Shown here: in pieces, positions 9,980 to 53,954 of the stretch
Numbering within the stretch: the stretch's first letter is position 1
Layout of the letters: each line of letters begins with the position of its first letter
Source of the DNA: Candidatus Nanoarchaeia archaeon
GTDB lineage: Archaea > Nanobdellota > Nanobdellia > Woesearchaeales > GW2011-AR9
NCBI GenBank assembly: GCA_035288985.1
Contig: DATDYP010000015.1
Coordinates: 27,119-91,118 of the forward strand
Length of the DNA: 64,000 bases
Reading direction: 5' to 3'
Notes under the pieces: model-generated
What the model saw: only the letters and a program-made list of their open reading frames with translations
The model's database searches: none
Told to the model about the DNA's origin: nothing
Made by a program: the position numbers and the translations under genes

Positions 9980-10077
9980 GGCGATGTGGAGTTTTATAAT
10001 GATTTCGATGGCAGAGTGTATGAAATAGACTCTTTTTTTTATATGTCAGATTTTTGTAGTTTACAAATCCTTTAACG

Positions 10078-10216
10078 CTTTTATGAAACCCTCCCGTTCG
10101 CACCATTCCCAGCAGTAATCAACTATACTAACGGCCATATCTCTTGAAGGGAATGGCACCATTGTCTGACGATTGGTATAGTGCTCACTGGCCAATTGGC
10201 GAGGGTTTCATAAAAG
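10078..10216. repeat. 139-bp palindromic element with perfect 16-bp terminal inverted repeats
   Basis: CTTTTATGAAACCCTC (10078-10093) is the exact reverse complement of GAGGGTTTCATAAAAG (10201-10216). Internal arms also pair (GGGAATGG / CCATTCCC, GTATAGT / ACTATAC). Lies between corA and ORF 10272. Confidence 0.6.
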
Positions 10217-10271
10217 CCAACCTTTAAGCAACATTTATTAACCAAAAAAAAATCCTTCTATCTGAAATTAC

Positions 10272-10940: not shown

Positions 10941-10973
10941 GTTATGAAGCAATACTTTAGCTTTCTGAAGAGA

Positions 10974-11268
10974 CAAATAGGGGCTTGGCCTACAGTTGCC
11001 AAATCTGCTAAACCATTCGCAAGAGATAGCTAAGTGCGAAAATCTTTGATAAGAAGATTAACCTTACTGCTATAATCACAAATAATTTTCGCCAGATTTG
11101 GCTGGCCTGCCCCTATTTTTCTCATTGAGAAGTCAAAGCCGTCTTGGCCAGTAAAATCTACCGAGCCTAGATATTAAAACAGAATTTGATAGGCTCGGAA
11201 CTTAACTTTGACTAAAGTATACATAGTAGATTTTACAAAACGAGGCCTAGACGACGCCTTTGACTTCA
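10974..11268. repeat. Highly structured intergenic region: two adjacent long-stem modules. Either a repeat-family member or an unassigned ncRNA.
   Basis: Module 1 pairs AAATAGGGGC (10974) with GCCCCTATTT (11109), and GCCAAATCTG with CAGATTTGGC. Module 2 pairs GAAGTCAAAG (11129) with CTTTGACTTC (11259), GTAAAATCTAC (11151) with GTAGATTTTAC (11226), and CCGAGCCTA with TAGGCTCGG. Shares TCTACCGAG and GAAAAGTC..GCC..TTGGCC words with the element at 49702. Confidence 0.5.
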
Positions 11269-22083: not shown

Positions 22084-22439
22084 TTCAGTGAGGAATATAC
22101 AATTGTAGTATCCGGATATTTTTTCGTTTTTTCGCTGAGAAAACTCACCTTCGTTCGGGGTCACCGCCAACTCACTTTCCGCTACAACCTCCCTATTGCG
22201 GCTCCTATCAAAAACGTGAAACGTTTTTGGGAGGTTCCAGAAATCACTATTTCTGATACCTTCCCGTAAGGAGCAACCCCTAACGAAAATCGGAGATTTT
22301 CGGGAGGTTCCGGAAAATCGTTGTTTTCCGTTACCTTCCGCAATCAAGGATTATGCGGATTCTACCGTTCGTATTAAGGCGGTGACCCTTATTTTCTCAG
22401 CGAAATAATTTCGGGATACTTCAGTAAGGAATATACAAT
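22084..22439. repeat. Structured repeat element (about 312-bp core) flanked by 20-bp direct repeats; member of the intergenic repeat family
   Basis: Direct repeats TTCAGTGAGGAATATACAAT (22084-22103) and TTCAGTAAGGAATATACAAT (22420-22439) match 19/20. Terminal inverted repeats are GTATCCGGATA... (22108) and ...CGGGATAC (22419), followed by CGCTGAGAAAA / TTTTCTCAGCG and GGGTCACCGCC (22158) / GGCGGTGACCC (22378). The internal word CTCACCTTCGTTCGG matches CTCACTTCGTTCG of the element at 46846-47010. Confidence 0.65.
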
Positions 22440-44993: not shown

Positions 44994-45031
44994 TTTGTTT
45001 TGTACCTGTTTTGTACTTTCTTGAGCATGAG

Positions 45032-45119
45032 CGGGCCGGAAGGGATTTGAACCCTCGACCGCTTGATGTCCTTCAGCTTGCTAAAAGTCAAGCGCTCTAC
45101 CAAGCTAAGCTACCGGCCC
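45032..45119 (-). tRNA. tRNA-Lys(UUU) with one 14-nt intron at 37/38
   Basis: Acceptor GGGCCGG/CCGGCCC. D arm GCTT-AGCTTGGTA-GAGC. Anticodon stem CTTGA/TCAAG. Loop CTTTTA[intron 45068-45081]A. T arm GAGGG-TTCAAAT-CCCTT. Discriminator G, no encoded CCA. Confidence 0.85.
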
Positions 45120-46845: not shown

Positions 46846-47010
46846 AGGCTCTGTCCTAAAGTCAGCGCCATCAGGTCAAAACTCCTCCTTTCTTCTCCAT
46901 CTGGCGCGTCGCGAGGGGTCGCTCCCTACGGGAACGCAGCGCAATACTTTAAACAGAAGCGAGAGTTTTGAAGGCGCTGAACGAACGAAGTGAGATTTAG
47001 GACAGAGCCT
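46846..47010. repeat. 165-bp element with perfect 15-bp terminal inverted repeats (intergenic repeat family)
   Basis: AGGCTCTGTCCTAAA (46846-46860) pairs with TTTAGGACAGAGCCT (46996-47010). Internal pairs: CAGCGCC/GGCGCTG and TCAAAACTC/GAGTTTTGA. The right end in reverse complement (GGCTCTGTCCTAAATCTCACT) matches the left end of the element at 53628 with one mismatch. Confidence 0.7.
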
Positions 47011-47057: not shown

Positions 47058-47153
47058 GCGGTAGTAGTATAGTGGTTAGTATACGGCCTTGCCAGAGATT
47101 TTGTAAAAGTCTGTAATGAGGCTGTGACCGGGGTTCGACTCCCCGCTACCGCA
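47058..47153 (+). tRNA. tRNA-Gly(GCC) with one 24-nt intron at 37/38
   Basis: Acceptor GCGGTAG/CTACCGC. D arm GTAT-AGTGGTTA-GTAT. Anticodon stem CGGCC/GGCTG. Loop TTGCCA[intron 47095-47118]A. T arm CGGGG-TTCGACT-CCCCG. Discriminator A. T-run after the 3' end. Confidence 0.85.
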
Positions 47154-47214
47154 TTTTTACTCATAGCATGACTGTAAAGAAATAATTATATACCCCTTCT
47201 CTTTTATTATTCTC

Positions 47215-49379: not shown

Positions 49380-49643
49380 ATGGGATTATATGCTATGTAC
49401 CAGCATCCGTTTATGTTTGGGTTTTCCCTAGCTCTTATCGGACTCTGGACGTTGGTGTGGAAAGGCTTAGGATTATGGTATGCCGGCAAACATCAGCAGA
49501 AAGGCTGGTTTATCGCTATTTTGCTTCTTAACCCTGTTGGCTTATTGTCAATAATTTATTTGCTCTGGTTCAGGCCGAGGACGCGGCGGAATGCAGAAAG
49601 TATGGTCATGAAGCGTTCTGTGCGCAGAAAGGCAAAGAAGTGA
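49380..49643 (+). CDS. Small two-TM membrane protein
   Basis: FMFGFSLALIGLWTLVW and WFIAILLLNPVGLLSIIYLLWF, with a basic tail. Confidence 0.45.
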   Translation: MGLYAMYQHPFMFGFSLALIGLWTLVWKGLGLWYAGKHQQKGWFIAILLLNPVGLLSIIYLLWFRPRTRRNAESMVMKRSVRRKAKK

Positions 49644-49692: not shown

Positions 49693-49884
49693 ACTAAATC
49701 CGGTTCTGTAGAAAATCTCTGAAAAGTCGCCTTGGCCGCTCATTCGGTCAATTCTTGCTTTGTATCTTTTTGTAAAAAGCATGATTTTTTGAAGGAATTG
49801 AACTACCAATAGGTCTTACGAAAAGCAGTTCCTCATTCGCAACGTGGCCGAGGCGGCGACTTTTTCTACCGAGTCACTAAATCC
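49693..49884. mobile_element. MITE-like element (174 bp, 49702-49875) flanked by a perfect 9-bp direct duplication ACTAAATCC
   Basis: ACTAAATCC occurs at 49693-49701 and 49876-49884. Terminal inverted repeats GGTTCTGTAGAAAA / TTTTCTACCGAGTC match 11/14. Inner inverted repeat AAAAGTCGCC / GGCGACTTTT. The left end resembles the family consensus GGCTCTGTCCTAAATCTC. The right duplication contains the stop codon of the RimK-like gene. Confidence 0.65.
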
Positions 49885-50956
49885 TAAACTCTTCGACGTT
49901 CAGTTTTCCTTTCCTGGCCTTGACAAGGTACTCTCTCCTGTCATTGAAGCCAGTTATCTTGGTGATCAATTCCGGAAGAAGAATCCGCTCACCACGCAGC
50001 GTCAAGTGGGTGATGATCTCATGCCCAGCATCAGGATCAGCAGAGAGCTCTTTCAACACTTTTGTTGTTGCTACCTTATGACTGGCATTAAGGATCGCGT
50101 CAGTCTTCCTGAACAGGAATTTGGCAATCTCATCGGCAATATCAATGGTTGAAACTTCACTTAACCCCTGTAACCCTGGAGAGATGTTGGCTTCTATCAC
50201 CAGCGGACCCGACGGTCCTTCCAGTATATCTACGCCGCAAATCTCTGCTTTCAAGGCTTTGGCTGTATCTAGCGCAATGTTGATAGTGTCCCTGTTTAGC
50301 TGGACGGCTGCGCCTTTTCCTCCGGCATGCAGATTAGCCCGCTTATCTTCCGTCTGTGATTTCCGCTTCATCGCGGCAACGACTTTTTCCCCAACAACAA
50401 GAGCTCGGATATCCTCCCCGCCAGTCTCAACGTATTCCTGAATGATAAAAGGCTGGTTCAGTACGCCCAAAGCATCTAACAGTGAAGAGGCCGAGCTGAT
50501 CGAATCCGCAAACATCACACCCTTGCCCTGCGTCCCTTCCGGGAATTTCATGACGATCGGATAGTTGACCAGTTTCAGCAGTTCTTTCGCTTCTGCTGCC
50601 GATGGCGAGATATACGTCCTGGGCATGGGAATATTTTGCTGCTGCAGGATCAAATGGGTGAGAAGTTTGTTATGCACTGTTGTGAAAGTACTTGAAGGAA
50701 GCGGCATGTAGGGGACTTTTCCTTCCAGCATCGAAGCGATGGAGCAGAGCAGATTGGCATACCTGTACGATCCTTTCACATAGACACAGTCATAATTATC
50801 TAGCTCCTTCCCTTGATATGAAATTCCAGCTTCCTTGCCTAGATGCACTTCAATCTGTTTCAGCTGGATCATGTCAACCTTGGTAAAATATTTTTTCATC
50901 GCTTCCGCTGTCATTACTGAGCTGGTACTTCCCATGGAAATGAGTGCGGCTTTCAT
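49877..50956 (-). CDS. RimK-type ATP-grasp ligase
   Basis: YPIVMKFPEGTQGKGVMF, FIIQEYVETGGEDIRALVVG, ANLHAGG, ICGVDILEGPSGPLVIEANISPG. About 70 aa of C-terminal extension. Confidence 0.8.
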   Translation of the reverse strand: MKAALISMGSTSSVMTAEAMKKYFTKVDMIQLKQIEVHLGKEAGISYQGKELDNYDCVYVKGSYRYANLLCSIASMLEGKVPYMPLPSSTFTTVHNKLLTHLILQQQNIPMPRTYISPSAAEAKELLKLVNYPIVMKFPEGTQGKGVMFADSISSASSLLDALGVLNQPFIIQEYVETGGEDIRALVVGEKVVAAMKRKSQTEDKRANLHAGGKGAAVQLNRDTINIALDTAKALKAEICGVDILEGPSGPLVIEANISPGLQGLSEVSTIDIADEIAKFLFRKTDAILNASHKVATTKVLKELSADPDAGHEIITHLTLRGERILLPELITKITGFNDRREYLVKARKGKLNVEEFRI

Positions 50957-51421: not shown

Positions 51422-51544
51422 GCCCCGGTGGTGTAGACGATAAATCAATCTTTGATTTATTGACACTCTCCGGACTATCATACTGCCCTTTCGTCCAGAA
51501 AGGGAAGATAGGCAGTGACCCGGGTTCGAATCCCGGCCGGGGCA
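51422..51544 (+). tRNA. tRNA-Glu(UUC) with two introns (D-loop 15/16 and 37/38)
   Basis: Exons: GCCCCGG TG GTGT AG | TCCGGACTA TCAT A CTGCC CTTTCG | A GGCAG TGAC CCGGG TTCGAAT CCCGG CCGGGGC A (75 nt). The D-loop intron is 32 nt (51437-51468), with BHB GTGT:ACAC, bulges AGA/TCT, and outer helix CGATAAATCAA:TTGATTTATTG. The anticodon intron is 16 nt (51494-51509), with BHB CTTT:GAAG and bulges CGT/ATA. T-run terminator follows. Confidence 0.8.
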
Positions 51545-53627: not shown

Positions 53628-53912
53628 GGGCTCTGTCCTGAATCTCACTCATGAAAATAAACAACGATTTATTTTCAGAGCTGAAATGAAGTCGTTGCTT
53701 TATTTCAGGCTTTGTTCGGGTTAGCGTGACCTCGCTTTTGGGAAATATGATAATAATGCGGCATCCCCGTACATGAAATTAAGAAACTACTTAATTTCAG
53801 TACAGAAAATCAATAGGTTTTGATTTTCTTGTAAGGGACAACCCCCTGCCGCAATCAATGCAATATCCAAGAAACGCTCGTACTCACACGCTAACCACAT
53901 TCAAGACAGATC
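53628..53912. repeat. 285-bp element of the same inverted-repeat family, with extra internal perfect hairpins
   Basis: The left end GGGCTCTGTCCTGAATCTCACT pairs imperfectly with the right end ...ATTCAAGACAGATC. Inner pair GGTTAGCGTG/CACGCTAACC. The word CTTTGTTCGGGTTAGCG resembles CTTCGTTCGGGGTCACCG of element 22084. Four perfect 9-10-bp hairpins are present (for example TGAAAATAAA/TTTATTTTCA and TGAAATTAAG/CTTAATTTCA). Confidence 0.65.
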
Positions 53913-53954
53913 TTATCCAACGATTAAATTTATAAGGAACAAAGGAGTACTATA

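Follow-up and report, generated by a model that had tools for sequence, protein, structure and literature searches.

Genes and repeats at the locus

The window analyzed here is a 64,000-nucleotide stretch of DNA from a Woesearchaeales genome (contig DATDYP010000015.1), and all coordinates given without a locus name refer to it. Its genes have their best relatives in assemblies that carry the labels Woesearchaeota, Nanoarchaeota, or Nanobdellota. Two intact genes converge within this window: a RimK-like ATP-grasp gene on the minus strand (49877-50956; Pfam RimK, 3.2e-44), whose homologs align with its product up to residue 358-359 of 359, and a DUF5652 gene on the plus strand (49380-49643; Pfam DUF5652, 1e-19). 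Most of the 233-nt gap between them is taken up by a 174-bp segment (49702-49875, minus strand), which we interpret below as a MITE. The segment is bracketed by two copies of the 9-bp sequence ACTAAATCC, one farther from the ATP-grasp gene (49693-49701) and one on the gene side (49876-49884), and the latter holds the TAG stop codon of the ATP-grasp gene (49877-49879). This sequence is present only at these two places in the whole window, and the chance of a 9/9 match at one fixed position is ~4.5e-6 with this base composition.

The two ends of the segment are inverted repeats, with 11 of 14 positions matched between GGTTCTGTAGAAAA and the reverse complement of TTTTCTACCGAGTC. Inside them lies a sub-terminal inverted pair on the plus strand, formed by a left arm AAAAGTCGCC (49722-49731), which is conserved across the subfamily A described below, and a right arm GGCGACTTTT (49855-49864). 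All of these features had been described in an earlier reading of the DNA letters (hereafter, the sequence-only reading), including the position of the stop codon inside the right-hand repeat, and our recomputation returned each of them at the same coordinates. When the ends are compared with those of the wider family, the terminal inverted repeat at 49702-49719 (plus strand; GGTTCTGTAGAAAATCTC) is of the IRR type, with one mismatch to the family consensus GGCTCTGTAGAAAATCTC, and the one at 49858-49875 (minus strand; GACTCGGTAGAAAAAGTC) is of the IRL type, with the ...GTAGAAA(A)GTC... asymmetry that is also present in the left end of the corresponding insertion sequence (IS), GGCTCTGTAGAAAGTC. 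Read on the minus strand, the element therefore runs from an IRL-type to an IRR-type end, which is the order of the ends in the transposase-bearing IS.

The coding content of the segment is limited to a 48-codon ORF that overlaps it and starts outside it. The family transposase, used as a tblastn query, gave no match in the window, in agreement with the earlier statement that no transposase gene is encoded there, and BLAST with the element as query returned nothing above chance level elsewhere in the window, and so no second copy of subfamily A. The outer bases of the two ends (GACTCGG and GGTTCTG) have drifted from the consensus GGCTCTG and, judging from this drift, the copy in the window may no longer be mobilizable.

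The segment is absent from an otherwise collinear site in a close relative

The convergent arrangement of the ATP-grasp and DUF5652 genes is kept in ~40 Woesearchaeota loci, in 28 of which the gap between the genes is 120 nt or shorter, and the element is absent from the orthologous site in all of these ~40 loci. In the window, the 233-nt gap corresponds to 50 nt plus 183 nt, the latter being the element and one copy of the repeat. Orthologs of the ATP-grasp protein (54-79% identical) are also filed under the labels Candidatus Omnitrophota bacterium (L075, CP070655.1) or Methanosarcinales; the Methanosarcinales-labeled loci, many of which are titled "uncultured Methanosarcinales archaeon", keep the convergent DUF5652 neighbor, as do the loci labeled Woesearchaeota, and the taxonomic labels of these Omnitrophota and Methanosarcinales records look doubtful.

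The closest comparison is provided by a Logan contig (SRR22388040_11470496; locus L206) that encodes an ATP-grasp protein, P0002, 93% identical to that of the window. This contig carries a single GGATTTAGT, directly followed by the homolog of the far flank of the window, with no insertion between them. Its ATP-grasp gene ends in ...TTC AGG ATT TAG T, the same ...AGGATTTAGT as in the window, and the two proteins share the same C-terminus (…EEFRI). From this point the contig reads TGTGAGAGAATTTTAGTAATTA, which is homologous to TATGAGATAATTTTAGTAATTA, the sequence found 3' of the far repeat copy in the window. When the element and one repeat copy are removed, the window aligns collinearly with L206 across the junction, and the uninterrupted junction sequence is AGGATTTAGTTGTGAGAG. 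L206 is a textbook empty site, and the segment at 49702-49875 was inserted into an ancestral site that lacked it.

This comparison also settles the origin of the stop codon. The sequence-only reading had proposed that the duplication supplies the stop of the ATP-grasp gene; since the TAG is present in the uninserted site as well, it predates the element. Insertion took place one base after the native stop, which lies within the duplicated target, and left both convergent genes intact. The insertion is found in each of nine contigs that encode the identical ATP-grasp protein; these contigs are 100% identical, and no polymorphism was seen within the population. The window was also examined for a reciprocal empty site of a related insertion (L114), and the two loci proved only partly collinear.

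Related elements occupy unrelated sites, most with a 9-bp duplication of their own

Among 80 loci of relatives that encode an ATP-grasp ortholog, one holds a homologous element (L008, a Nanoarchaeota assembly; nhmmer E 2e-14). This element lies 3 kb off the orthologous position, between two copies of another perfect 9-bp repeat, GTCAGAAAA. Searching metagenome contigs for the shared right-end motif GAGATTTTCTACARARCC yielded at least 120 stretches and, among the matches listed, a left end of the type GGCTCTGTAGAAAA is present 50-900 bp upstream in 44 of them, which represent 43 distinct insertions with sizes clustering at 150-166 bp. Perfect 9-bp direct repeats flank 27 of the 43 insertions, and repeats matching at 8 of 9 positions flank 10. 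The flanking repeats all differ from one another in sequence. No perfect repeat of 8 or 10 bp flanks any of the 43 insertions, and controls with shifted flanks always had at least three mismatches. Viral contigs, scanned with both end motifs as a control for chance matches, gave 10 isolated motif matches with neither a partner end nor the body of an element. The mobile element suspected in the sequence-only reading is thus represented by further copies with matching ends, whose consensus is GGCTCTGTAGAAAATCTC.

Many of the metagenome contigs end ~90-105 nt from the end motif, a behavior expected of multi-copy repeats. Eleven pattern matches in the metagenomes were rejected as MITEs since they lie inside a conserved protein-coding gene; these matches (L098, L100, L119, L125, L127, L138, L140, L147, L174, L094, and L135) all fall at the start of one ~360-aa gene, on the opposite strand.

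The copies of the family form two subfamilies, A and B, and a sub-terminal stem GTCGCC...GGCGAC is characteristic of subfamily A. A profile HMM of subfamily A, built from six other copies (from the L008 genome assembly and the metagenome Ga0209542) with the window left out, matches the window end to end at 49703-49873 on the minus strand (profile positions 3-150, E 5.7e-24). Within subfamily A, the copies L114 and L189 are 99% identical, lie at different sites, and have different perfect duplications, which points to recent transposition. The ~72 kb available from the genome of the window contain one copy of subfamily A, with no second one found, and three or four copies of subfamily B.

Some duplications, such as TTTTCTACA and CTACACAGG (among insertions that include L167:1107-1295 and L095:587-752), resemble the element's own end, and the target sequence in the window, ACTAAATCC, resembles the subfamily B end variant CCTAAATC. 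Such likenesses may reflect insertion into or beside other copies, or may be coincidental.

A partner insertion sequence of the IS5 family

The sequence-only reading had pointed to a transposase with matching terminal repeats as the expected partner, and such a gene was found among metagenome contigs. Locus L146 carries an 898-bp element (1261-2158) with the same ends, a perfect duplication TTGATAACC, and one ORF of ~272 codons; its right end, reverse-complemented, is identical to the family consensus. The protein matches Pfam DDE_Tnp_1 (PF01609; 3.4e-15), and its best NCBIfam model is that of the IS5 family, NF033579, over the full length (125 bits, E 3.5e-36); this score lies below the curated 140-bit cut-off of the model, and the next model scores 41 bits. 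The protein also carries a Y-(2)-R-(3)-E-(6)-K signature (YWQRNIIECLFSALK) that is invariant in 22 homologs. On these grounds, assignment of the predicted partner element to the IS5 family is well supported.

Homologs of this transposase form 405 clusters at E<=1e-20, typically of 270 aa, most of them on ~1-kb contigs that correspond to the IS itself. Further copies of the IS were found in L164 and in L210-L215, the latter being 898-899 bp long. The transposase ORF enters the right terminal repeat: most copies have its TAA 3 nt away from the terminus (TTCTACTAAACC), the right end of L146 reads TTCTACAGAGCC with the ORF continuing into the flank, and the MITEs carry a stop-less version of this end. 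The two ends of the IS differ from each other (...GTAGAAAGTC... versus ...GTAGAAAATCTC...), and the same asymmetry is kept in the MITEs. No flanking duplication was seen around five other full-length copies of the IS; three of these share one flank and differ in the other, which suggests chimeric assembly across repeats.

No transposase gene was found in the ~72 kb available from the genome of the window. One copy of the IS (L214) comes from the same ENA sample as this genome, and tetranucleotide composition gave no link between the two (correlation 0.83, rank 61 of 162). Since neither a transposase gene nor a second copy of subfamily A was found in these ~72 kb, mobilization in this genome is inferred.

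The copies, the consensus ends, the transposase-bearing partner, and the empty site bear out the earlier proposal of a non-autonomous DNA transposon with a 9-bp target duplication. We conclude, with a probability of roughly 93%, that the segment at 49702-49875 is a MITE, a non-coding derivative of a ~900-bp IS5-family insertion sequence common in Woesearchaeota-like (DPANN) archaea.

The partner IS raises the alternative that a full-length IS inserted at this site and lost its interior in a single event, in which case the segment would not belong to a self-propagating MITE lineage. The element has just ~18-20 bp per end in common with the full IS, and it is the sole subfamily A copy in the available part of its genome, both of which would fit such an event. 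Against it, the six other subfamily A copies align with the element end to end and belong to the same length class, they share with it the GTCGCC...GGCGAC stem and parts of the interior, and this interior has no similarity to the transposase gene. We consider a private deletion very improbable. As to the enzyme, several IS families make duplications of 8-10 bp and none of the transposases could be tied to this genome, so that a MITE mobilized by a transposase not of the IS5 type (IS4, for example, or another family that makes 9-bp duplications) can be envisaged, but the sole coding elements found with the exact ends encode an IS5-type DDE protein and the MITEs preserve the asymmetry of its two ends, which makes this scenario hardly credible.

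RNA folding and a conserved core in subfamily B

The plus strand of the element folds into a long branched hairpin (-55 kcal/mol, z = -3.3 relative to shuffled sequences), and some inner stems of the family keep their pairing through two-sided changes. These properties would be expected of a non-coding RNA gene with a conserved structure, or of a hairpin native to the locus (in a 3'-UTR or as a terminator), the flanking repeat then being a coincidence. However, the segment is missing from L206 and from the ~40 orthologous loci, and homologous copies stand at unrelated loci with 9-bp duplications of their own. The strong fold is accounted for by the terminal and sub-terminal inverted repeats. 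In addition, no Rfam model matches the element, whether at the gathering threshold, at E<=5 with the entire window scanned, or at E<=1 in a more sensitive scan of the local sequence. An RNA gene or native hairpin is extremely improbable on this evidence, and a MITE whose inverted repeats fold remains our reading of the segment.

The only matches in the Rfam scans of the window, and of two elements locally, were three intron-bearing tRNA genes, at 51422-51544 (plus strand), 47058-47154 (plus strand), and 45031-45119 (minus strand). The tRNA gene at 51422 apparently contains two inserts, of 40 nt and 19 nt; it was missed by ARAGORN and was detected by Rfam in E-value mode only.

Subfamily B has an internal core with the consensus aGGGGttGctCCnTaCGGGaa inside a CTGACA...TGTCAG stem, a region that was not selected for by the search pattern (loci L083-L197). 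Pairing in this core is kept through double changes, from CG to UA in 4-5 of 16 copies, and the core persists in elements whose terminal repeats are changed or decayed (46847-47009, 53629-53913, and ~22131-22404). Conservation of this kind is unusual for the interior of a MITE. GNRA-like motifs at 22084 and 53628 that resemble those of SRP RNA or RNase P (...CGTAAGG AGCAAC...) were rejected as such; they are the subfamily B core read on the opposite strand, and Rfam gives no match to them. In view of this conservation and of a density of ~70 elements per Mb in a small DPANN genome, it is conceivable, though unlikely, that the core is a selected RNA or protein-binding motif spread through Woesearchaeota genomes by transposition, and that the family is more than selfish DNA. 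If so, the motif might be a terminator, processing, or regulatory signal in 3' regions, and the element at 49702-49875 might have such a role between the two genes that converge on it. That this element supplies T-tracts or a hairpin to the shared 3' region is speculation.

Other elements in the same genome

The sequence-only reading had grouped the element with intergenic elements at 10974, 22084, 46846, and 53628. By profile HMMs and alignments, the relationship holds for those at 46846 and 53628 and probably for that at 22084, and it fails for that at 10974, where no similarity was found.

The element at 46847-47009 (plus strand, 163 bp) is a MITE of the sister subfamily B (subfamily B HMM, E 1.7e-7) and aligns end to end with other copies of this subfamily. 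Its end variant, GGCTCTGTCCTAAA, is compensated, its arms form a perfect 15-bp inverted repeat, and its flanks, TTTACAATA and TCTACAACA, match at 7 of 9 positions.

The element at 53629-53913 (minus strand, 285 bp) matches the profile in two collinear segments and is a derivative of subfamily B with extra internal hairpin modules. Its ends match at 13 of 18 positions and its flanks, AATCTGACG and TATCCAACG, at 6 of 9. A close sibling of this element, a 227-bp MITE, lies in the same genome ~7.1 kb before position 1 of the window (L208:1012-1238), with ends GGCTCTGTCCTGAATG... and ...GAGATTTAGGATAGAGCC and the perfect 9-bp duplication GGAGAATAA, which indicates that this lineage, too, was recently active in this genome. 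The two hairpin modules of the element (53651-53710 and 53770-53830; ~60 nt) recur alone elsewhere with 76-90% identity (L137:2285-2342, L168:2714-2771, L028:3925-3964, L085:3-45, and L101:4862-4902), and may represent another, smaller family of repeats located inside the MITE.

The element with approximate boundaries at 22131-22404 (minus strand) is probably an old derivative of subfamily B: three collinear HMM segments match it weakly, the core GGGGTTGCTCCTTACGGGAA among them, and it has degenerate ends (CGCTGAGAAAA) and inverted arms at 22127-22143 and 22392-22408. No clear target duplication is visible at this site. The element, which precedes an SMC gene, is bracketed by a 21-nt direct repeat (CAGTRAGGAATATACAAT...; 22084-22104 and 22419-22439, 95% identical) that lies ~25 and 17 nt outside the inverted ends, too long and too far out for the 9-bp duplication.

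The region at 10955-11138 is an intergenic hairpin with 30-nt arms that are 73% complementary, and it has no detectable relation to the MITE profiles or to the loci fetched for comparison. Nor does a second intergenic hairpin, at 10077-10217, with perfect 17-nt arms 107 nt apart, resemble these profiles or loci. The segment at 11129-11267 (minus strand), adjacent to the first of these hairpins, is a possible decayed remnant of subfamily A, proposed with low confidence from an HMM match at profile positions 9-130 (E 0.006); it keeps the inner stem, lacks recognizable terminal repeats, and has no BLAST matches elsewhere.

Comparison with known insertion sequences and archaeal MITEs

The closest known parallel is IS903/IS903B, of the IS5 family, on enterobacterial plasmids. 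It makes a 9-bp target duplication, as does the archaeal family, and this length is the rule for the IS903 subgroup (PMC8431375). A plasmid copy of IS903B shows the 9-bp duplication CGTTGTGTC, and thousands of plasmids carry the IS903 terminal sequence, the associated genes being annotated as IS903 or IS903B transposase. Between the IS903 end GGCTTTGTTGAATAAATC and the archaeal GGCTTTGTAGAAAATCTC, 14 of 18 positions agree, including all of the first 8 bases. Both elements encode a single DDE transposase for which NF033579 is the best NCBIfam model. A profile of the archaeal transposase aligned with IS903B by hhalign gives a probability of 81% (E 1.2e-5, 228 columns), with the DDE residues in register, whereas the two proteins are only ~22% identical and their pairwise BLASTP match is not significant (E 0.9). 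The archaeal IS is also smaller, with 898 bp and ~270 aa compared with 1057 bp and 307-322 aa in IS903, and its host is a DPANN archaeon and not a bacterium; the window holds the non-coding derivative only. Judging by the ends, the length of the duplication, and the transposase profile, the archaeal IS likely falls in an IS903-like subgroup.

Among plasmid records, the closest annotated matches to the transposase are haloarchaeal IS5-family elements (e.g., ISHvo2-like), whose "IS5 family transposase" proteins are 24-30% identical to that of the archaeal partner over more than 90% of the length, a distant relation.

MITEs are known in archaea (review, PMC10969869). Those of Sulfolobus (SM1-SM4), Halobacterium, and Haloquadratum are likewise short and non-coding, with terminal inverted repeats and target duplications; like the family described here, they are multi-copy and mostly intergenic, and they are mobilized in trans by a related IS, as we propose for the present family. 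In a census of 8220 archaeal genomes, a Woesearchaea genome is among those with the highest MITE densities, at 105 per Mb (PMC11602168). The texts compared here contain no description of the present family, whether of its ends, its IS5-type partner, or its two subfamilies. The element is of an ordinary, well-known kind.

Proposed mechanism and implications

We propose that a ~270-aa DDE transposase, produced from a full-length copy elsewhere in the cell, would have bound both ends of the element (consensus GGCTCTGTAGAAAATCTC) and made cuts staggered by 9 bp at the target GGATTTAGT, which comprises the last codons and the TAG of the ATP-grasp gene. The element would then have been joined in, with repair of the gaps duplicating the 9 bp. 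Having landed in a ~50-bp spacer between convergent genes, it would have altered neither protein. On this proposal the element was mobilized in trans by the partner transposase, and movement would have been either cut-and-paste or replicative, as in IS903 (PMC8431375).

These results leave the current understanding of transposition unchanged. They provide a documented pair of a MITE and an IS for Woesearchaeota (DPANN), with both ends, the length of the duplication, an empty site, and a transposase. For annotation, the intergenic blocks of 150-300 bp that form hairpins in these genomes are to be masked as repeats and not taken for new RNA genes. Such blocks also explain contig breaks in DPANN assemblies, and the family can be used to trace recent genome change between closely related strains. 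Finally, the very small genomes of these presumed symbionts retain active IS and MITE families at high density.
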